This document shows, piece by piece, positions 575-34,023 of a DNA stretch of 35,461 nt. This DNA is from a virus. Its lineage: Duplodnaviria > Heunggongvirae > Uroviricota > Caudoviricetes. Below the pieces are notes generated by a model that saw only the letters and a list, made by a program, of their open reading frames with translations, was not told the origin of the DNA and searched no databases. The stretch is taken from the IMG/VR virus record IMGVR_UViG_2778261527_000008. The stretch is one strand, 5' to 3'. Position numbers and translations under genes: made by a program. Each line of letters opens with the position of its first letter. Positions within the stretch are counted from its first letter, which is position 1.

Positions 575-1345
575 TTATTTGCACCCGTACTGGTCAACAT
601 AGATTTTAGAATATCCTTGTTTTTGTACTTCTAAGCGAATCATATCTTGATTATCACGCCACACATAATATTTTTTGTTATCCACTTGACCTTCATATTG
701 CATAGCACCATTCTGATGCGTCACGGTTTTTGTTTTTGCTTTATGTGCGTTATAATTATCACGATACACAAATTCAATAATTTCCCCGTCTTTTACTTTA
801 AGTTTAAGTTCACCAGAGTTATAACGAGGATAACTAGGGTCTTTAACTACTTTTGTTTCTACCCCGTCGTGGATTTCCCATTCATAGTGAACATCGCATT
901 GTAATTCCATATCGCCTGTAAATCCTTTTGGTTTCTCTTCAACCTTCGGTTCTTCTACCACTTTTTCTTCCTGTTTCGGTTGTTCTTCTTCAACCTTCGC
1001 AGAAGTCTCTGAAACGCTCCCTGACGCGGTTTCTTCTTTAGATAATACATTCATCAAGTTTTGGATTTGAGCGTTGTATACAGCCTCCAGTGGCTGAATC
1101 TGCCCGATATTGATCATTGTATCACGAACAGTTTTATTCCAGTTGCGTTGCTCTTGTTTAAGCGACGGGTCAATCTTAACAGCCTTAACATATACTTCAT
1201 GAAGTTTAGAATCCAGTGCGGAGATTGACTCATTAGAACAAATAAACTTCTCTGATTTGGTAGTAGCTTTAGCGCAATCAAAGGACGCAGCATTAGCACC
1301 GAAAGCAGTAGCAGAAAGCACGATAGCAGCGATAATGTTTTTCAT
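575..1345 (-). CDS. secreted protein with DUF1311/LprI-like N-terminal domain, Glu/Lys-rich linker and C-terminal beta-rich domain (moron candidate)
   Basis: 256-aa ORF; signal peptide MKNIIAAIVLSATAFGANA; FDCAKATTKSEKFICSNESISALDSKLHEVY resembles the DUF1311 signature; RBS AAGAGG upstream of ATG. Confidence 0.45.
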   Translation of the reverse strand: MKNIIAAIVLSATAFGANAASFDCAKATTKSEKFICSNESISALDSKLHEVYVKAVKIDPSLKQEQRNWNKTVRDTMINIGQIQPLEAVYNAQIQNLMNVLSKEETASGSVSETSAKVEEEQPKQEEKVVEEPKVEEKPKGFTGDMELQCDVHYEWEIHDGVETKVVKDPSYPRYNSGELKLKVKDGEIIEFVYRDNYNAHKAKTKTVTHQNGAMQYEGQVDNKKYYVWRDNQDMIRLEVQKQGYSKIYVDQYGCK

Positions 1346-1703
1346 TTTATACCTCTTTTGGTATGGACTGACTTTTAGATGCTTACTTTATTGATTTTTG
1401 ATATTTTTTCAATTATTGGGATGAGATTTAGTAATTAAATTAAGAAATTAATGCTTGACAAATTAAAAAGGTACTGTTCCACGGATGAAATAAAGGGAGT
1501 TTTCGGCACCCCGGTATTTGATACGCGTGTGAGATTTTAAAACGTGATCAGTGCAGTCCTAGCGCGGTCGCTACGCGACTATTAACCCACTTCCTAGCCC
1601 TTACCATTACTGGATCTTTCCCTTCGTTAGAATGCGATTTAGGCGCTTAGATTGTGCGTAAAACCAATAAATAAAATTACGCAAATTTAATGGAGGATAA
1701 CCA

Positions 1704-2258
1704 ATGAAAGAAGAATTAACCCTTACAGAAATTTCCCGTTTATACGGCTATTCATTGAATGGTGGCGCTAAGCGATGGATAGAAAGGGGATTGCCATTTA
1801 ACACCAATACCCGCCGCGTGCCAGCCAAAGAAGGAACAGAATGGGTCTTGAAAAATATTATCAACCCGCTTAAACAAACTTCTATCAAAGAACAAATCGA
1901 TGTAGAGAAATTACGCCGTGAACGTGCTTTGGCAGATGCAGCCGAACGAGAGAACCAGGAAAAAATGAATCTCCTGATTCCTGTCGGTTATGTAGAACAG
2001 GAACTAGCGGAATATTGCGGGAAAGTGAAGCAGACTATTTTGCAGATCGCCACAATTGACGTTTTGGAAGTTCTCGAATCTGCCACCGACCAGAAAACAT
2101 TGAAGAACAAATTAAGGGAGATCATCGAGCGTCGTTTAAATGAAGTAGGGGACTTGTTCGAAAATGCTGATTTGGGAGAAGACGAGGAAGAAGAATTACC
2201 ATTAATGGATGAACCGGAAGAAGAACCAGAAGAAGACGATGAATTTGATGTGTCTTAA
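1704..2258 (+). CDS. terminase small subunit, Nu1-like (winged HTH N-terminus, acidic C-terminus)
   Basis: 184 aa; N-terminal LTLTEISRLYGYS...WIERGLPF HTH-like segment, EKLRRE segment and acidic tail reminiscent of lambda Nu1 architecture; RBS GGAGGA; same strand as terL. Confidence 0.5.
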   Translation: MKEELTLTEISRLYGYSLNGGAKRWIERGLPFNTNTRRVPAKEGTEWVLKNIINPLKQTSIKEQIDVEKLRRERALADAAERENQEKMNLLIPVGYVEQELAEYCGKVKQTILQIATIDVLEVLESATDQKTLKNKLREIIERRLNEVGDLFENADLGEDEEEELPLMDEPEEEPEEDDEFDVS

Positions 2259-2359
2259 AATTTCTATACTAAATACATATGTGAAAGATGTTGAGCTGGT
2301 CAACGTCTACGGGGGAGAACATCCCCCGCTTAACCTTTTTCTTATTTGAGGATTTACCT

Positions 2360-2461
2360 ATGGTTGAATTTTTGATTTATCTTACTGTAGGATTAACTAT
2401 CGTATATTCACTGGCACATATTGGCATTTCTGCTGTGTGTAACGCTTTCAAGTATCATTAA
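2360..2461 (+). CDS. small hydrophobic peptide (33 aa), single TM helix
   Basis: ATG at 2360 with GAGGA RBS 7 nt upstream; MVEFLIYLTVGLTIVYSLAHIGISAVCNAFKYH; below the ORF-track size cutoff. Confidence 0.25.
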   Translation: MVEFLIYLTVGLTIVYSLAHIGISAVCNAFKYH

Positions 2462-2514
2462 TTAAATCGATGAATTGAACTATAGATGATGGTCGTGTTC
2501 AAAGAGGATTATCT

Positions 2515-2688
2515 ATGGATCTTTTTGTCTACTTTGCTACTCTGCTGTTTTTGACTATCGTCGCTGGCATTAAATTGATTTTTATATCGCTGGTGGTGTT
2601 TTTCAAATTTCTAATCGGTACGCCTTACGGCTGGGTATGCTTCTTTTTGTTTATTCTTTTTAGTTGCTGTAAAAAGGATACTAAATAA
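2515..2688 (+). CDS. small membrane protein (57 aa, two predicted TM helices)
   Basis: ATG at 2515 with AGAGGA RBS; MDLFVYFATLLFLTIVAGIKLIFISLVVFFKFLIGTPYGWVCFFLFILFSCCKKDTK. Confidence 0.3.
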   Translation: MDLFVYFATLLFLTIVAGIKLIFISLVVFFKFLIGTPYGWVCFFLFILFSCCKKDTK

Positions 2689-2846
2689 TAGTGTAATCTG
2701 CCTTTTCTCCTTATGGTTATTAACAGGGGATCTTCTTTGAGGATTCCCGATTAAAAGCCATAAAACACACTCCAGTACAGTGTTTTCATAGTCAGTGATC
2801 TATACAACACAAAAACATAACAAGTATAGATTGAGTATTAATCCTC

Positions 2847-2872
2847 CCGCCCCTTCGGGGCGGTTATTTTTC
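2847..2872 (+). terminator. rho-independent terminator (UUCG tetraloop hairpin + U tract)
   Basis: ccgcccc-ttcg-ggggcgg followed by ttattttt. Confidence 0.6.
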
Positions 2873-2948
2873 TGGCTTTAAAGAATAATGTAGCATTATG
2901 TTCATTATAACCTCATCTTTGTTGTGCAAACCTAACCTAAACTTACTA

Positions 2949-2974
2949 GGGACTCTTCGGAGTCCCTTTTTTTT
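2949..2974 (+). terminator. rho-independent terminator (second, tandem)
   Basis: gggactc-ttcg-gagtccc followed by 8 T. Confidence 0.6.
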
Positions 2975-3215
2975 ATGCAACAATTCGAAGTGTAAGTTTC
3001 TTATGTTGTGTAGGTTTAGTTTCATTTCGCCACTCAGGGAATACATGATCCATCATAACCGCATTAGTCTCATCAATCAGCTTTAAGGACTTTCTCAACG
3101 CCTTATTATCAGCTTTAAGAGTTTTAATCTCTGATTCCATCGCTACCATTCTTTCTTTCATTTTGGTAATTTCTAACATCAGATTACCCAGAAATTCTTT
3201 GTTTTGATTCATCAT
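2973..3215 (-). CDS. hypothetical coiled-coil protein (80 aa)
   Basis: ORF with GAGGGG RBS; heptad-like KxL periodicity; no recognisable catalytic motif. Confidence 0.4.
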   Translation of the reverse strand: MMNQNKEFLGNLMLEITKMKERMVAMESEIKTLKADNKALRKSLKLIDETNAVMMDHVFPEWRNETKPTQHKKLTLRIVA

Positions 3216-3230
3216 AGATTCACCCCTCTA

Positions 3231-4232
3231 TTAAGCTGCGTATGCGTAGGCGCTGTAGTTGGTGTCGTAGATAGCGTCATGCAGTGCCATCTGTGCTTCG
3301 CGGATCTCGTCTTCGTTTACTTCAATCTCTTCTTGTTCTTCTTCGGTATCTTCCCAAGTGGTTTTGAATTTAGCCATAAAGTTATTGCGCAGGGATTCAA
3401 AGTTAGTAACAGGTGCGGATTTTTCTTCAACCGGAACTACTACCGGATCAGCTTCTTTCTGTTCTTCCTGTTCTACTTTTTCACCATTACCCCAGCGATA
3501 GTTAAGGAGTTCTTCCAGTTCTTCATCAATGGATTTTTCTTCAACTGCTTCAACTTCAACCGCTGCTACTTCGAAAGTGGTTTCCTGTGCTGCCAGTTCA
3601 GCTTTCAGAGATGCGTTTTCAGCTTCCAGTTCAGCAATGCGTGCTTTCAGTGCTTCAACTTCGGAAGATTCAACCACTGCAACTTCTTCTTTAACTTCTT
3701 CAACTACTACCGGAGCAACTTCTTTCTGTGCTTCTTTTTTGCAGAAGAAGGAGGAAGTAACCTGTAATGCGTGGTTGTAGAAGGAACCGCCTTTAGCGGT
3801 GTTAACAGTACCAGAAACATCCTTTACAGTGGATTCGGTAGCAACAGTACGGAAGCGTTTTGCGACTTCCTGGGTCTCTACGCCGTATTCGTTACGCTTG
3901 CTCTTGTGATGCATTACAGCACGGAAGCCGGAAGCAGTTTTAACAACAGCCAGATAGTAAGTTTCATCGGCTTTAACAGCACGAGCGAAGCAATAAACGG
4001 ATTCACCTTCTACCAGTGTAGGTTTAACGTGACGTTTGTCGAAACGGTTAGTGATCTGCCATTCAGCACCGTCTTTGATGCCAGCATTCTGACGCATTTC
4101 GGTCAGAGTCTTACCGGATACTACTTCAAAGGATTTGTCTTGTTTGCTTGCTTTACCTTCCATGACGGTAATGTTCAGTTTGCCGTTGGATTTAATAAAC
4201 AGGTTGAAGGTGATGCGCTTAGAATTTTTCAT
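3231..4232 (-). CDS. hypothetical protein: basic N-terminal domain, coiled coil, strongly acidic C-terminal tail
   Basis: 333-aa ORF with GGAG RBS; EVEALKARIAELEAENASLKAELAAQ coiled coil; Glu-rich tail; family not recognised. Confidence 0.5.
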   Translation of the reverse strand: MKNSKRITFNLFIKSNGKLNITVMEGKASKQDKSFEVVSGKTLTEMRQNAGIKDGAEWQITNRFDKRHVKPTLVEGESVYCFARAVKADETYYLAVVKTASGFRAVMHHKSKRNEYGVETQEVAKRFRTVATESTVKDVSGTVNTAKGGSFYNHALQVTSSFFCKKEAQKEVAPVVVEEVKEEVAVVESSEVEALKARIAELEAENASLKAELAAQETTFEVAAVEVEAVEEKSIDEELEELLNYRWGNGEKVEQEEQKEADPVVVPVEEKSAPVTNFESLRNNFMAKFKTTWEDTEEEQEEIEVNEDEIREAQMALHDAIYDTNYSAYAYAA

Positions 4233-4532: not shown

Positions 4533-4874
4533 CTTATATCCTCCTAAATCTGGAATAATGATTTCTTAAAAAAGAGCTTTTCGCTCTGAACAATTCTATT
4601 TATAAAATGTTTTTCGAAAAACCCTGTAAAACCACTGTATATCCGATCAGTGGGAGCACGAATTGCTAAAGAGAAGATTAATAATTAATCAATTCGTACA
4701 TTATTCAATCGAATAAGCACTGTATGTTTAGCCAGTTCTGTATGAATTAACAGTGAGTCAGGGGATTTTCAGAAGTGAACAATCATTTCATGCATGTATT
4801 TATACACGAAAAAATCTTGCGTATCATCAATATGGGGATTGTTTCGAAAATTTCAACCCCTACCAACGAGAAAA

Positions 4875-4903
4875 AGCATAAAATAATCCTTGACAGTTGT
4901 CAA
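4875..4903 (-). promoter_or_regulatory. candidate sigma70 promoter reading leftward, embedded in palindrome TTGACA-gt-TGTCAA
   Basis: on minus strand -35 TTGACA (4903..4898), 17-nt spacer, -10 TATGCT (4880..4875); the palindrome could also be an operator. Confidence 0.3.
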
Positions 4904-5100
4904 TACACTTGATCTAAGCGAGAGATGACTATCAAAATTTTTGTGTGAAAATGGCGGATAACGATTATCAACCTTTATAACCTATTATAGCACGGCGACC
5001 TTTTGATAATTCTTTTTAAATCATGCATTTACGGCGATTTTTGGTGATTTTCTGGTTAAATAATATACAAGAATTTTCTATCAAAATTTTTGATGAAAAA

Positions 5101-5220
5101 CCTACACTACAAACCTACGCTTTAAAGGGATTGGCCTACACTACACTAGCCAGTAAACCTACACTATAACACCCTCAAACCTACACTATGAAACCTACAC
5201 ACCTACACTAACCCTACACT
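5101..5220. repeat. iteron-like direct repeat array, core CCTACACT (6 perfect + 2 variant copies)
   Basis: copies at 5101, 5114(var), 5135, 5158, 5180, 5194(var), 5202, 5213; three successive spacings of 21-23 bp; often preceded by AAA. Confidence 0.6.
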
Positions 5221-5408
5221 TCAATCTCATAAGTGTATGATATTGAAAGACATTTCACCCCACAGACCATAGAATATAAAATTCGAACTAACGTTCTCCT
5301 TTTTGCTCGTTTTCTCTCACTACGTTCAAGAAAGATCTCGCAAAAAGAATACGGCGTAGCCGTGCGCGAAGCGCCCATCAACACCTTCTAAGACCTGCAA
5401 GCAGGATT

Positions 5409-5561
5409 CGAAAGGGATTGGATAGTTCGCTTCGCTCACGTTCACGCCTACGGCGTTCACTCGCTTTTGAAAGGATTTTCTTAGAAAGGGATTTAATACT
5501 AGTTACTAACTGATTCTAGTAAACGAACGAAGTGAGTAACAATCACTTTCTAGAAAGGTAT
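5409..5561. repeat. second direct-repeat family GAAAGG(G)ATT (4 copies)
   Basis: copies at 5409, 5468, 5483, 5552 inside a GC-richer structured segment. Confidence 0.4.
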
Positions 5562-5799
5562 TGGTTATCCCTTCGGGATTGCAACCTTCGGTTGCTAAAT
5601 TGCTTCCTGATTATTATTTCTCCAAAAGAAAGATTCTTATATTCTAAAGATACTTCTTCGTTTTGATGATGATTTAATCAAACCATGAAGGAGGGCTTTA
5701 GCCCGACTGAATACAATCACCTTTCATAATAACAAGAATTTTCTCTTTATAAATAATAGTGAACTTACTTGATTCACTTTCTTTTAGAGGATTTCCACT

Positions 5800-8474: not shown

Positions 8475-10382
8475 ATGAAACTGATTTCTAATAAGGCAAA
8501 ATTAAAAAAGATTCTCAGAAATGCAGCCAAATATATTACGCCACCGCCTAAACTCCTTCCATCGGAATGGTGCGAAGCGAATCTAACGCTAGTCGATGGT
8601 CCTCGTGCTGGGGATAAAGTTAAATTGCTGTCATTTCAGAAAGGCATGATTGATGCTCCTTTCCTTGAGAAGAAAAAGAAGTACGTTTTTTGTACGAGTG
8701 CGCAGATCGGAAAGACGACCATCATGTCAGGGATCATGTTTAACCAGATGGCAAACGATCCGTGTAATATCATTATCGGGCAAAGTACCGCTAAAGAAGT
8801 GGCTATGTACTTGAATACTAAGATCCGTCCTTCTATTGAAGCATGTCCGGCATTACAGGAAGTGGTAACAGATAAGAATGATCGTAATGCGGTAAACAAC
8901 AATAACCAGATTCAGCTAAAAACAAACCATTTCCTTTACATGGTTTCTTTGACCAGTCCTTCAAGTTTGCGCGGGCGTACTGCCAAGTTAGGGATTGTAG
9001 ACGAATGCGACGCAGCAACAATCACCGAAGAAGGTTGCCCGGTGGCACTAACTGCAAACCGTTTAACTACCTTTGGTGATGAAGCTCGATTGATTGTTTC
9101 TAGTACCCCGACCAATAAGCTGGGAATCATTAACCAGCAATGGTTATCAAGTGATATGCGTATGTTTTTTGTTCCGTGTCCTCATTGCGGGGAACACCAG
9201 GTGATCGAGTGGGAAAACGTTCAATTTGAATGGCGTAACATTGATGGTAAGAACTTACCCGATCCTGATACCGCTCGTTATATTTGCCCCCACTGTAAGA
9301 ACGCATGGACAGAAGGGGAACGAATCAGGGCAGTAGCGCAAGGCGAGTGGAGAGCAACCCGTGAAAGTGAAGTAGCAGGATTCTGGATCAGTCGTCTGTA
9401 TTCACCTTTCAGCACGATCCGCGCTTGTGTGGTTGATTTTAGTCATGCGTGGCAATCCTTTGATTTACAATCCTTTTTTAACACCGTGTTAGGCAAGGTA
9501 TACGACGATCAGGACACGGCAGTAGAAGCAAATGAACTGGAACAACTCAAAACAGATGTTTCTATCGAGAATATCCCTGATGACGTGATTTTCTTGTGTG
9601 CGGGTACTGACCAGCAATTAGATCGCGCAGAAACTACGATCATGGGCGTGGCAAAGGATAAGATTTATATTCTGGATCACCGCAGCTTTTACGATCATAA
9701 CTGTGAACGATATGAATCACCTGTATGGGATAGATTAATCAACTTCCATAAAACCAAATTTACTACTGTATCGGGTGATCGTGTTCCTATGCTCGCCAGC
9801 TTCCTTGATACATCGAACGGTCGATTCACTCAAGCTGGATACCGTATTTGCGGCAAGTGGAAGAACTTACACGCTATCAAAGGTAGTTCTGCTGGTAACG
9901 CTCCGATCATTCCGGTTAAACCTACCCGCACAGGTGGTCATGAATTGCTTATGCTGGGCGTTAACGTTGGGAAATCCGCTGTTCGTGAAATGCTGGTTAG
10001 AAACCTGAAAGATAATCCTCATATTGGCTTAGAAATATCAGAAACCATTCCTGATGATTATCTCGATCAGCTTTTGAGTGAATCCATCAAGCGTACTACT
10101 ACTGGCGTGCGTTGGGTGAAAAATCCAGGTAGTACCCGAAACGAGGCTCTCGACTGTCTGGTTTATAGCTATGCTGCTTCTCGCTACGTTCTTTCAAAAA
10201 TGTCATGGGATAAACTCATTGCAATGAAAGACAGCTTAAACCGTGTTGTCGAAGAATCCGTAGAAGCTCCTAAATCGCAATCTGACGAGCAAATCGAAGA
10301 AAATAAGCCAATCACACGACCACAACGTAAAAACATCGCCAGACGCCCAAATAGAGGCCGTAGCTGGGTAACATCGTTCTAA
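8475..10382 (+). CDS. terminase large subunit, lambda GpA family
   Basis: 635 aa, size and motifs (zinc-finger-like CPHCG...CPHC segment) consistent with GpA-type terminases; GAGGG RBS. Confidence 0.8.
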
Positions 10383-29844: not shown

Positions 29845-30123
29845 ATGACTGAAATTATATATGGCGGTATCGGTGTTATCGCCTTAATTTGCGGTGGTCT
29901 TTGGAGACTTCACCGAAATCAATTAGCAACTGAAAATAGATTGTCGAAATTGGAATCCAGCGACGCATTGTTAAACCAGAAGTTTGAGACGATGCAGAAT
30001 AACCATACTCAGATTGCTGAACGTGTTTACCAAATGGAACAAACACTACACGGTATAGAGAAGAAAGTGGTTGCGATGGACGCCAAATTTGACCAAGTTC
30101 TCGACATACTCAAACAAAAATAA
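29845..30123 (+). CDS. membrane-anchored coiled-coil protein (holin/antiholin or spanin-like candidate)
   Basis: 92 aa; N-terminal TM IIYGGIGVIALICGGLW then coiled coil; GGGGG RBS. Confidence 0.35.
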   Translation: MTEIIYGGIGVIALICGGLWRLHRNQLATENRLSKLESSDALLNQKFETMQNNHTQIAERVYQMEQTLHGIEKKVVAMDAKFDQVLDILKQK

Positions 30124-30141
30124 TAATAAAGGGGTGAATAT

Positions 30142-30312
30142 ATGAAGAATAAACTTAAGAAATATTTTGGTTATCTCTTGATTGTCGCCCTCACTTATAA
30201 CGTAGCTATTAGACCTCTGCTAACGTCCTTTGGGCTTGAACTCCCGGCTATGACCGTGGATGAACAATTGCTAAGGACACTGGCGGGGGTCTTTTCGTTA
30301 TTAGGGGGCTAA
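30142..30312 (+). CDS. small membrane protein (56 aa), holin-like candidate
   Basis: ATG with AAAGGGG RBS; hydrophobic core YLLIVALTYNVAI; stop overlaps next start region. Confidence 0.3.
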   Translation: MKNKLKKYFGYLLIVALTYNVAIRPLLTSFGLELPAMTVDEQLLRTLAGVFSLLGG

Positions 30313-30313
30313 C

Positions 30314-30997
30314 ATGGCAACCAGTACCAATAAACGAAACGCTCTAAGGACTAAGAAAGCGTTACGGCAATGGTCTGAAAAGGCAACCGATACATTCGAA
30401 AAGGCACTAGGGGAAGGGGCGATCTTTGCTTCCAGAGCACTCCAGAAGAAGATTAACAAGAATGTTGATAGACCTACTCGATGGACTCAGCAAGCTGTAG
30501 GTAATACCAACTACAAGAACCGATCAGGGACGAGACACCAAATCTTCATCAAGGGCGCAAGGGATAAGGACAAGAAGATCGGCAGTCAGGATGACTATCT
30601 GAAACACTATTTCGATGGGGGAAAAATCAATAAGCTAGTTCCAATCGCCAACGGTAAGGTCTTAGACGCCCACGGGAACATTAAGGCCATCAAAGGCGGT
30701 AAGATGATGCGTAACATCGAAAACGGCAACTTCATCAAGGTAGAGAACAAGGAAGGGACTTTTATCATGAAGAAGTACAAGCCTAAGAAATCCCGAACCA
30801 AACGCGCTAAGAATGGATCGGCGGTGGCAAAACGTCGCTTAGAGAAACGCATACAGAAACAGAGTAAGCGAATCGTTGCCGTTAAATCGGATAAAATTTC
30901 TACTCGTTATTCGACGCTAGGATCGTGGGAAAGCAACGAGGAAATGATGCTTAAGAACATTAATAAGCACATTAAATCGCGCATGAGATACGTTTAA
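30314..30997 (+). CDS. highly basic hypothetical protein (Lys/Arg-rich)
   Basis: 227-aa ORF with GGGGG RBS; function not recognisable. Confidence 0.45.
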   Translation: MATSTNKRNALRTKKALRQWSEKATDTFEKALGEGAIFASRALQKKINKNVDRPTRWTQQAVGNTNYKNRSGTRHQIFIKGARDKDKKIGSQDDYLKHYFDGGKINKLVPIANGKVLDAHGNIKAIKGGKMMRNIENGNFIKVENKEGTFIMKKYKPKKSRTKRAKNGSAVAKRRLEKRIQKQSKRIVAVKSDKISTRYSTLGSWESNEEMMLKNINKHIKSRMRYV

Positions 30998-31035
30998 TCC
31001 ATAAATACCCTCATAGAATCTTATGGGGGTATAAC

Positions 31036-31383
31036 ATGGCTAAAAATATTTTCACTGAATTTCCTACTTATCCGGTCGATCAGCTTTCCGGTATTTTTAT
31101 TAATGGCATTAGTCCAGAATCAATGACTTATGATTTTGAGGCGAAGAGAGTTAAACATAAACAATATAAAGAATGTATCCGTGACCATGAAAAGGGGACC
31201 GTGTTTTGTGTCGCTACATTGGCTAAACGTCCTAAGTATCGTTTTCGTGTCGGGCAAGAAGTCGATGTAGTTAATCCTTATAGCTTTAATTGTCTGGGCG
31301 ATGCACGCGCGGTGTGTGTAGGTACTGCTCCTTATTATATCAAGGGTATGCGCTTTATTGGTTATATCTTCGAAATGATCTAA
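31036..31383 (+). CDS. hypothetical protein
   Basis: 115-aa ORF with GGGGG RBS. Confidence 0.45.
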   Translation: MAKNIFTEFPTYPVDQLSGIFINGISPESMTYDFEAKRVKHKQYKECIRDHEKGTVFCVATLAKRPKYRFRVGQEVDVVNPYSFNCLGDARAVCVGTAPYYIKGMRFIGYIFEMI

Positions 31384-31392
31384 GGGGGTAAT

Positions 31393-31746
31393 ATGTTAAG
31401 CAAACATTTTTCTCGCAAGGAATTTAAATGTAAATGCGGAAAATGTGATTATGATACAATCGACGCTGAATTACTGGTAATTCTTGAGGATGTACGAGAG
31501 CACTTCGGTAAACCAGTGATTATTAACAGTGGCAACCGTTGCCCGACTCATAACAAGAATGTAGGCGGGGCAGCCAATAGCTATCACGTTCGAGGCCGTG
31601 CGGCTGACATTGTTATCAAGGGTGTCTCACCTGATATTGTTCATGCTTATCTTGATGGGAAATATCCTACTCAATACGGCTTAGGAAAATATAAAACATT
31701 TACGCATATCGATTCCAGATCAAAAAAATCACGGTGGAATGGATAA
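31393..31746 (+). CDS. endolysin, zinc peptidase M15 family (cell-wall peptidase)
   Basis: 117 aa; INSGNRCPTHNKNVGGAANSYHVRGRAADIV and later His/Asp fit the M15 zinc-binding signature. Confidence 0.65.
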   Translation: MLSKHFSRKEFKCKCGKCDYDTIDAELLVILEDVREHFGKPVIINSGNRCPTHNKNVGGAANSYHVRGRAADIVIKGVSPDIVHAYLDGKYPTQYGLGKYKTFTHIDSRSKKSRWNG

Positions 31747-31752
31747 AACAAA

Positions 31753-31776
31753 AGCGCCTCTGGTGGGCGCTTTTTT
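31753..31776 (+). terminator. rho-independent terminator after endolysin
   Basis: agcgcc-tctggtg-ggcgct followed by tttttt. Confidence 0.55.
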
Positions 31777-31955
31777 GTTAGAATATGCTGGCGACGTTAG
31801 CTATATTTCTGACCATTTTTTCATTATAGACAAATATACCGCAGACGATAAAGTCGTTTTTGACGAAGTAGATCCGTCTCTGGTTGAAGTAATGAAAGAA
31901 CCGGAAGACCTAGAGCTTGATTTAAGCCAATTATAGACTCTCTAACGCAATTAAA

Positions 31956-32280: not shown

Positions 32281-33960
32281 TTAAATTCCAAATTCTTGTA
32301 ATGGACCTGGTATTTCTTCTTCTGGTTTCCAGTTCTTATCTGTCAGCATGTCTAAACATGGATGCAGAACAAGCCCGTTACTCTCCAGAATCTGCCTATC
32401 ATTGATAGTCTTCAAATCAACGAAGATCCGGCCTTTCCTCGGTCCTCTTGAATTTTCTATTACAACTCTCTGGGTCTTGCCATCGATGTATTCCAGTACA
32501 AACAAGTTTTTGTACTTGTCAATCCTGCTACACCCGATCCGTTTTAGAGCTTGCTTAATCTTAAACCGGACCTTAATGCGATCCTCGTTGTAAACATCTT
32601 CTAAATCAAATTCTGCGAGCTTCTCCCAGCCTTGAGAGTCAACAGAATACATTTCCTCTTCTGCCATCTTAAGTTGATTGTAGAGTGTTTCACGCTCGCT
32701 ATTGAGGGTAGTAATCTGATCGGCTAGCTCCTTCGTTGCTCCTGTCATAGCAGAAAGGGTAATCAGGTTATCAATCTTGCGTGATATTTCATCAATCTGT
32801 ACTTTCAAAGCCGGAACCGGATTAGCCTTATCTTCAGCAATCCAGATTTTATCAGCCAGCAATTGCAATACAGCTTTCTCTAATTGGTCGCCGCGAAAAC
32901 TCCAGTTTGTATGCACACATTCAATACGACTAGAGCGCATTGCATCGCATGAATAACGATATTGGTTAGGCCGTCTGTTTGTTCCTTTCACCTTAACCAT
33001 AGCGGAACCGCAATGTTCACATTTCAATAGACCAACACCACTAAGCAAGGGAATAGGTTTAGCTTCTTCTTTGTCTCCAAAGTTACATGCTCTAACACCA
33101 ATGCTTTTCTTAAGGTGATAAAACTCAGCGTCATCTAGCACACGAGGATAATAATCCTTTAACTCATACTTAACGCCATCTACAGAGATTTCCTTGATAC
33201 CAATCAAAGCGCGGGTATGGAACAACCTTTCAATCATTGCCCGTGACCAGTTTGAATGCCTCTTGTGACTTGCGGCTGGTGGTGGTGTGTATGTCGCGTT
33301 AAGGTGATCCAGTATCTCGGCGGTTGACCGTCCATTCCTGCGTAATTCCACAACTTCCTGAACAATAGGGAAGAAGACCGGATGAGGAAGCACATAACCA
33401 GATGTGGTATCAGTCCACCACATATTCTTTCCAATTTCCTCGATTGCAACAGCCGGATTTTGTGGATTTTCTTGATGAGCTTTAATCTTAATCAGTGCGC
33501 TTGAGTTAGTACGATTGCGCTTAGTCTGGCTTTCCTCATTACCACGGATGAATAAAAGGATGGAGAACATCAGGTCCATCGGGTTAGCGGTAACAGTATC
33601 AAGCGAGTAGATCTTGTTATCCATGCCAGTAACAATGGTTATCCCCCTACGGATGATTGAAAGGAATAACTCCTGCGCACTGACAATATCGGCACGGGAT
33701 AAACGGTCCAAGTTTTCGATGAATAGCCAGCTACCAACAGGAACGGATCTACCTATTGCATCAAGGAAACGAGATAGCGCCCCTGTTTTGGAGTTAGCAC
33801 CCTTAAACGCAGATACACCCAGATCCTGATAATCATTTACCAGTTCAAGGTCATACTTTACCGCAATCTCTCTAGCCATCCTGATTTGTCGTTCATAACT
33901 CGAACCATCATTCTGACGCATAGACGAGAAGCGAATATACGAATACAGTTTAGTTTTCAT
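32281..33960 (-). CDS. large serine recombinase (integrase/resolvase family)
   Basis: 559 aa from ATG at 33960; N-terminal resolvase catalytic motif YIRFSS..Q; Cys-rich zinc ribbon CEHCG...C..C; coiled-coil segment. Confidence 0.8.
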   Translation of the reverse strand: MKTKLYSYIRFSSMRQNDGSSYERQIRMAREIAVKYDLELVNDYQDLGVSAFKGANSKTGALSRFLDAIGRSVPVGSWLFIENLDRLSRADIVSAQELFLSIIRRGITIVTGMDNKIYSLDTVTANPMDLMFSILLFIRGNEESQTKRNRTNSSALIKIKAHQENPQNPAVAIEEIGKNMWWTDTTSGYVLPHPVFFPIVQEVVELRRNGRSTAEILDHLNATYTPPPAASHKRHSNWSRAMIERLFHTRALIGIKEISVDGVKYELKDYYPRVLDDAEFYHLKKSIGVRACNFGDKEEAKPIPLLSGVGLLKCEHCGSAMVKVKGTNRRPNQYRYSCDAMRSSRIECVHTNWSFRGDQLEKAVLQLLADKIWIAEDKANPVPALKVQIDEISRKIDNLITLSAMTGATKELADQITTLNSERETLYNQLKMAEEEMYSVDSQGWEKLAEFDLEDVYNEDRIKVRFKIKQALKRIGCSRIDKYKNLFVLEYIDGKTQRVVIENSRGPRKGRIFVDLKTINDRQILESNGLVLHPCLDMLTDKNWKPEEEIPGPLQEFGI

Positions 33961-34023
33961 ACCATTTCCAAACAAAAACGCCCCTACCGCGTATTATAAC
34001 GATAGGGGCCAGGTGATTAAAGA

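Follow-up and report, generated by a model that had tools for sequence, protein, structure and literature searches.

Phages and prophages encode several kinds of very small membrane proteins and accessory genes that have been described in detail. The small inner-membrane proteins that exclude superinfecting phages include Imm of phage T4 (83 aa, two transmembrane (TM) helices), gp15 of HK97 and proteins of the lactococcal Sie2009 type. Holins are represented by S105 of phage lambda in class I (three TM helices, N-out/C-in) and by S21 in class II (two TM helices), and the two-component holins by Gp4/Gp5 of mycobacteriophage Ms6 and XhlA/XhlB of PBSX. Three-helix N-out/C-in or two-helix N-in/C-in layouts, short basic C-terminal tails, small size, very fast sequence turnover and constant presence are the classical traits of class I, class II and two-component holins, and adjacency of holin and endolysin genes is usual, not obligatory. 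The type I toxin peptides comprise Hok, TisB, Ldr and Fst as well as the prophage-borne BsrG and TxpA. The moron of lambdoid prophages, a concept of Hendrix, is an additional gene that brings a promoter and a terminator of its own; bor and lom are examples. To our knowledge, no class of phage genes is annotated less well than that of the small membrane proteins. We describe a module of two such genes, referred to as ORF A and ORF B throughout this paper, and compare it with these systems.

The window, i.e., the whole stretch of DNA that was analysed (35,461 nt, IMG/VR record IMGVR_UViG_2778261527_000008), is a prophage of about 35.5 kb with a serine recombinase, inserted inside hicB. The 5' part of hicB occupies bases 1-351, and in E. 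coli CE0007a, which is the most closely related complete genome, the 3' part of the gene adjoins the opposite prophage end. In addition to portal, capsid and tail genes, the element encodes the following functions:

1704-2258, plus strand: terS, Nu1-type small terminase subunit of 184 aa, with a match to phrog_57
8475-10382: large terminase TerL, gpA-type
31393-31746: M15 endolysin
32281-33975, minus strand: integrase, a large serine recombinase

The identity between the window and CE0007a is 99.9% over positions 1400-3300 but only 98.7% in the tape-measure gene (21801-24233), and the window is therefore a different, mosaic relative of the CE0007a prophage. Relatives at other loci (L002-L017) are integrated in hicB, ycdX or codB, and the target gene is truncated each time. 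Among 50,697 records of phage isolates, the region had no megablast match, terS had no tblastn match, and the best TerL match reached 42.7% identity; a full-text search of the literature returned nothing on this prophage lineage or on the module. The lineage that carries the module consists of temperate, siphovirus-like prophages of Enterobacterales. Between attL and terS lies a cargo hot spot (575-1345, minus strand, in the window; also loci L014, L047 and L044). It holds an LprI-family lipoprotein in the window; in other loci the cargo is a 101-aa protein, a GIY-YIG nuclease or a CapR-like protein of 397 aa. In Providencia, AbiTii was inserted after terS, and the insertion is flanked by two copies of the TATAAATA box. 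Positions 4533-5799 of the window (1.27 kb) contain no credible ORF and carry at least seven direct copies of AAACCTACACTA, with an iteron cluster at 5098-5221. Allowing up to two mismatches, this motif has 14 matches in the window vs. 3.0 expected, and the array is probably a replication origin or an operator array.

The gene upstream of the module had been called terS in a sequence-only reading of the window, and this identification was borne out. The protein matches phrog_57 "terminase small subunit" with E = 1.5e-11 along almost all of its length (residues 2-169), its homologue P0083 gives a faint match to PF07471 (Phage_Nu1), and one homologue is named "terminase small subunit" by PGAP. 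In a distant relative (L050, 3001-5383), a 33%-identical homologue stands directly before the gpA-type TerL, followed contiguously by the portal gene. The window protein itself has no Pfam match, and no relative of terS was found among the GTDB species representatives. In the window, terS is separated from TerL by 6.2 kb, which are mostly taken up by opposite-strand genes and include a Rha-like gene and the iteron region, and no other terS candidate lies near TerL. In this lineage, terS has split off from TerL. A conserved leader of about 250 nt precedes terS (1453-1703); it begins after an A-tract at an invariant CTTGACAA, which has no -10 partner, and holds small GC-rich palindromes such as GTCGCTACGCGAC. 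This leader may serve as cos or as a region bound by terS, or it may be an activator-dependent promoter.

The module and its flanks consist of the following elements:

2286-2308, plus strand: hairpin 1, 9-bp stem AGAUGUUGA/UCAACGUCU
2310-2328, plus strand: hairpin 2, CGGGGGA-GAACA-UCCCCCG
2360-2461, plus strand: ORF A, 33 aa with one TM helix, sequence MVEFLIYLTVGLTIVYSLAHIGISAVCNAFKYH
2462-2514, plus strand: A-B spacer, 53 nt, containing the Shine-Dalgarno (SD) sequence of B
2515-2688, plus strand: ORF B, 57 aa with two TM helices
2689-2846, plus strand: structured 3' untranslated region (3' UTR) with hairpins at 2716-2758, 2762-2786 and 2799-2830
2847-2872, plus strand: terminator T1 (hairpin 2847-2863 plus tail), seven G-C pairs and a U-tract, -14.6 kcal/mol
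2948-2975, plus strand: terminator T2 (hairpin 2948-2967 plus tail), 8-bp stem and U8, -14.1 kcal/mol

The earlier reading had described two small hydrophobic peptides with good ribosome-binding sites, located directly after terS and before tandem terminators, and this description agrees with what was found. The sequence GAGGA stands 7 nt upstream of the ATG of ORF A (2348-2352) and 6 nt upstream of that of ORF B (2504-2508), and the GRAVY values of the two products are 1.22 and 1.56, respectively. The distance from the terS stop to ORF A is 101 nt, and "directly after" thus includes two conserved hairpins. The AlphaFold model of ORF B is a helical hairpin (helices 2-35 and 37-55, mean pLDDT 80), with a GTPYGW turn between the helices and a basic C-terminus, KKDTK. 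Based on hydropathy and helical models, both A and B are predicted to be inner-membrane proteins, with the predicted topologies N-out/C-in for A and N-in/C-in for B. The exact ORF A sequence is present on 66 public contigs. Some pipelines call both peptides "uncharacterised" or "putative membrane protein," and RefSeq PGAP annotates neither of them in CE0007a, even though at least 1000 public contigs contain the identical 57-aa sequence.

It is conceivable that the two ORFs are non-functional, either as the halves of a broken three-TM gene or as chance ORFs in the structured 3' UTR of terS. The missing PGAP annotation in the closest genome is in line with this, as are the AT-rich composition of the module (GC 32-35% vs. 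42-44% in its neighbors) and the fold of 2259-2980, which is more stable than that of shuffled sequences (z -4.9). Comparison of related loci argues against it. A total of 40 loci were surveyed, i.e., 16 from E. coli genomes, 23 from IMG/VR and the window. The A-spacer-B arrangement was found in 23 of them; ORF B is intact in all 23 and ORF A in 22, the single frameshift being in L013, a decayed prophage with IS3 insertions. Both ORFs are also intact in L052, a remnant lacking 21 kb that was fetched after the survey, so that all but one of 24 A-B-type loci retain them. Most polymorphism in both ORFs falls on third codon positions, with 8 synonymous and 3 non-synonymous changes in ORF A (omega about 0.12) and 15 and 14, respectively, in ORF B (omega about 0.27). 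In the other frames, omega is about 1.1-1.3 for ORF B, and for ORF A it is 0.29 in one frame with zero synonymous change in the other. For A and B together, 23 synonymous and 17 non-synonymous changes stand against an expectation of 23% synonymous (binomial p = 2.7e-6, an indicative value as the sites are partly dependent). The purifying selection is thus seen in the proposed frames only, and each ORF has a separate SD.

Homologous proteins were also detected in another genus. Salmonella prophages whose terS is 53-70% identical carry, behind the same two hairpins, a two-TM ORF of 59-60 aa followed by a one-TM ORF of 33 aa, each with its own SD; the order is inverted relative to E. coli (B'-A'). 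The Salmonella 33-aa protein is 39% identical to A in an ungapped alignment (shuffle z = 7.5-8.0), and at this level of similarity the two are clearly homologous. The 59-60 aa protein shares the GW turn and the KKDTK end with B (shuffle z = 3.0-4.2) and is probably its homologue. Between two Salmonella versions, pN/pS was 0.33 for the A homologue and 0.57 for the B homologue, which indicates purifying selection in this genus as well. A simple split cannot give the inverted order, and A and B are therefore not merely the two halves of a broken gene. On these comparative grounds, A and B are genuine, separately translated small membrane-protein genes kept by selection, and the frame-specific selection and the conservation across genera place their conservation beyond chance. 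The non-functional explanation is accordingly regarded as highly improbable.

The slot occupied by A and B is filled differently in other prophages. In 16 other E. coli loci, it holds one ORF of 94 aa, which is annotated as hypothetical; the protein is modelled as three helices, and purifying selection acts on this allele, with pN/pS values of 0.2-0.45 and a pS that reaches 0.77. Homologues of 92-98 aa fill the slot in other prophages of E. coli, Salmonella and Providencia, and a 74-aa two-TM protein does so in Proteus. Altogether, 39 of the 40 E. coli/IMG-VR loci have a membrane ORF in the slot, as do the loci examined from Salmonella, Providencia and Proteus; in the remaining E. coli locus (L028) the cassette is disrupted. 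The cassette type swaps among near-identical prophages, and its boundaries are sharp: in a comparison of A-B DNA with the 94-aa allele, the similarity ends at the SD and returns at the last two codons, ACT AAA TAA. The A-B pair is one of several alleles of a cassette that can be replaced between conserved boundaries; these alleles are A-B (E. coli), B'-A' (Salmonella) or a single three-TM protein of 92-98 aa.

The lengths of A and B add up to about that of the 94-aa protein, which would fit a broken gene. The three-TM proteins end in FKQTK or KKDTK and have a cytoplasmic loop after the first TM helix, and A followed by B gives the same topology. A possible homology between the 94-aa protein and A or B was considered and rejected: BLASTP gave no alignment, shuffle z was at most 1.2, and the hhalign probability was about 1%, with only the C-terminal KKDTK aligned, which is encoded by the conserved junction. 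The absence of detectable homology also argues against A and B being fragments of the three-TM gene, and the two versions appear to be positional and architectural equivalents, not homologues.

No described family could be assigned to either version. There was no credible match for A, B or the three-TM proteins in Pfam, PHROGs or PADLOC, and the sole library match was PycTM (E = 0.005), a TM-only similarity. An exhaustive profile search of 1.84 billion representatives returned only the own cluster of ORF B, and a word-indexed search only sequences at least 95% identical to it. The model of ORF B had no structural match in BFVD at E ≤ 10, and that of the three-TM protein had none below E = 0.6. 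In Rfam, no family was found at the gathering threshold or at E ≤ 1. The A/B module forms a new orphan family, and as phage genes its members are of an ordinary kind.

The RNA flanking the ORFs is structured, and much of this structure is conserved. In hairpin 1, an A-U pair is changed to G-C with compensation in 6 of 23 distinct sequences, and a different hairpin takes its place in Providencia and Proteus. Hairpin 2 shows a compensatory change in four sequences and was scored as terminator-like in Providencia; the two hairpins together have a folding energy of -25.4 kcal/mol (z -4.5). A U-rich tract starts 7 nt past the stem of hairpin 2, which makes it a leaky terminator at best, and this hairpin is a candidate leaky terminator, attenuator or stabiliser. 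In L010 (NZ_CP024131), the loop of hairpin 2 is inverted, with GGGGGATGTTCTCCCCC in place of GGGGGAGAACATCCCCC, which hints that the palindrome was flipped in the DNA itself. Hairpin 2 was also considered as a cos site, being a GC-rich perfect palindrome conserved across genera. This was judged less likely: its loop sequence varies freely, the neighboring hairpin 1 keeps its structure and not its sequence, and both hairpins are linked to the membrane gene, not to terS, in Providencia.

The 3' region is more stable than expected (-16.9 kcal/mol, z -4.0), and its hairpin at 2716-2758 shows a full UA-to-CG compensatory change in 10 sequences; in Salmonella and Providencia, hairpins of different sequence were seen at matching positions (by eye, with no pair count). 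The tandem terminators named in the earlier reading are canonical hairpins followed by T-runs, and they are conserved with compensatory changes. Loop and stem variants of T1 retain pairing, T2 begins about 100 nt after T1 and shows a CG-to-GC compensatory change in four sequences, and both are found in E. coli, Salmonella, Providencia and Proteus. T2 adjoins the stop codon (2973-2975) of a convergent 80-aa gene, and the tandem terminator would thus insulate the convergent operon from plus-strand transcription. Three more iteron-like sites lie around T2, at 2928-2939 (plus), 2988-2999 (minus) and 3006-3017 (minus). Two of these sites are within the final codons of the convergent 80-aa gene and encode KPTQ...KLTL there; a C-terminal PTLR(I/L/V)VA ending is common to unrelated downstream proteins in other loci.

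As for transcription, no sigma-70-like promoter was predicted between terS and A, nor upstream of terS. An invariant TTGACA 250 nt upstream of terS stands without a -10 partner, and the conserved TATAAATA box before the hairpins would make a poor -10. In the 94-aa cassette, the SD begins about 10 nt past hairpin 2, which leaves no room for a promoter. Given this spacing and the lack of a predicted promoter, read-through from terS is the simplest model. Co-transcription of A and B with terS is plausible from the arrangement of the genes, but two conserved hairpins intervene, and the second is the one with terminator-like character in Providencia. In that genus, the AbiTii gene lies between terS and the hairpins, and the hairpins remain with the membrane gene.

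Such RNA features raise the question of whether A and B are membrane-depolarising peptides, either similar to type I toxins or acting as abortive-infection effectors, that are restrained by mRNA structure or antisense RNA. Lengths of 33 and 57 aa are within the type I toxin range, and the conservation of the flanking RNA structure is unusual. The A-B spacer is the least variable segment of the A-B type, with 2 of 53 columns varying, while the ORFs vary in 12-16% and the flanks in 27-44% of columns. A possible stem (2480-2490/2508-2518) would cover the start codon of B, although its stability (-11.8 kcal/mol, z -1.7) is not significant alone, and an antisense promoter-like site lies within B (2606 to 2578). 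A hok-like fold-back through an 11-nt complementarity between the SD of B and an arm of the 3' UTR hairpin was examined and rejected, since neither the second hairpin variant nor Salmonella retains the pairing. Several results speak against a toxin: promoter-like sites do not exceed the shuffled expectation and the antisense ones are not position-conserved, the SDs of both ORFs are strong, with that of A left unpaired in the predicted fold, the Rfam and PADLOC searches gave no match, and the alternative allele of 92-98 aa with three TM helices is too large for a type I toxin. We consider a toxin improbable.

The function we favor, tentatively and at less than even confidence, is that of an inner-membrane superinfection-exclusion or protection factor. 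The proposal has two grounds: the cassette is always present (apart from the one disrupted locus) and yet its type changes among near-identical prophages, and the module lies in the prophage region where defence and conversion cargo accumulates. The cargo near the module across relatives comprises the LprI-like lipoprotein, the GIY-YIG nuclease, the CapR-like 397-aa protein and AbiTii. According to the proposed mechanism, A and B would act together as a split three-TM unit in the cytoplasmic membrane, as their topology and co-occurrence suggest. Transcription would enter from terS through the two leaky hairpins and keep the dose low, as the spacing and the lack of a promoter imply, and it would halt at T1/T2 so that no antisense transcript runs into the convergent early operon. 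The module may then interfere with the DNA entry or membrane attack of competing phages.

Other observations weigh against the exclusion function. Neither A nor B showed homology to exclusion proteins or defence models in the profile libraries, PADLOC or the 1.84 billion representatives, and no promoter able to express them in the lysogen was found in the window or its relatives. As an indirect linkage test of exclusion, the cassette type was compared with the tape-measure allele, and no association was found: identity of the tape-measure gene to that of the window is 95-98% in genomes of the 94-aa type and 93-96% in those of the A-B type, with CE0007a as the exception. Moreover, the presence of a membrane ORF after terS in every intact locus examined from four genera looks more like a core lytic function than cargo.

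The lytic function in question would be that of a holin or a holin/antiholin pair, formed by A and B or by the fused three-TM protein. The product would be made late with terS and would open the inner membrane to the cytoplasmic M15 endolysin, which could then reach the wall. This endolysin lacks both a signal and a SAR sequence and therefore depends on a holin, and Pfam and PHROGs recognised no holin family anywhere in the prophage; in a phage with no recognisable holin, a role in lysis is a serious rival. When the whole window was scanned outside its larger genes for short ORFs that follow an SD and encode a strongly hydrophobic segment, only A, B and one signal-peptide protein came up, which leaves A and B as the only strongly hydrophobic small non-secretory proteins found there. 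The predicted three-TM N-out/C-in and two-TM N-in/C-in layouts and the short basic C-termini (KKDTK, KGNKGKRNK and KSKSK) fit a holin, as do the small size of the proteins, their very rapid turnover in sequence and their constant presence; co-transcription with the late gene terS would fit as well. On the other side, the module lies about 29 kb from the endolysin on the prophage map, and the endolysin operon (29845-31936), which begins directly after a terminator, opens with membrane candidates of its own: a 92-aa protein with an N-terminal TM helix and a coiled coil, which has a weak Rz-like match (E = 0.036), and a weakly hydrophobic 56-aa protein. No recognisable holin or o-spanin was found in that operon. 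Furthermore, the N-termini of A and B (MVEF and MDLF) have no second start and hence no dual-start motif, the C-terminal tails measure only about five residues, the upstream hairpins would keep expression low, and there is neither a structural match to an annotated holin in BFVD nor a Pfam or PHROG holin family. A role in lysis is therefore possible but rather unlikely in our judgement, and it comes after the preferred exclusion function.

A broader version of the lytic function can also be formulated, and we hold it to be quite unlikely. It supposes that the module is an undescribed, lineage-wide three-TM device, built as one piece, as two or as two swapped, which would be the missing non-canonical holin or lysis clock and would be coupled physically and transcriptionally to packaging instead of to the endolysin. 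Its dose would be set by the conserved RNA architecture, namely the 5' tandem hairpins, the spacer stem occluding the start codon, the structured 3' UTR and the double terminator. The probability that remains is assigned to other or unknown membrane roles.

Whichever function applies, the case provides comparative evidence that such mini-genes are real, in a pair that the RefSeq annotation of the closest genome omits. The split, fused and order-swapped versions of the three-TM unit constitute a natural experiment, and a defined replaceable cassette is now described in a prophage lineage with no isolated representative. If the module is an exclusion factor or a packaging-linked holin, a new family is added to the class of small phage membrane proteins; if it is neither, A and B are an ordinary orphan accessory gene pair.

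In comparison with the known systems, the module resembles each of them in part. It has in common with the exclusion proteins that A and B are very small, predicted to be polytopic in the inner membrane, phage-encoded and fast in sequence change, and it lies beside defence and conversion cargo, as exclusion genes often lie outside obvious functional modules. It differs from them in lacking sequence or profile similarity, in being seemingly tied to terS and in having its function split over two peptides. Like type I toxins, it is located in a prophage and encodes hydrophobic peptides of 30-60 aa on an mRNA that is highly structured and conserved, but no Rfam match or described antisense RNA was found, the SDs are strong and exposed, there are two cistrons, and a 92-98 aa protein is the allelic alternative. 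The GC content below that of the neighbors, the strong terminators, the position near the prophage end among cargo and the sharp-edged allelic replacement are moron-like; unlike a moron, the module has no detected promoter of its own, and its slot is filled by a membrane ORF near-constantly and not sporadically. Compared with holins, A and B are not beside the endolysin, have no dual start, a very short cytoplasmic tail and no PHROG holin match, but they agree with holins in size, in TM number and predicted orientation, in the basic C-terminus, in the extreme diversity combined with constant presence, and in the existence of one-piece and two-piece versions.
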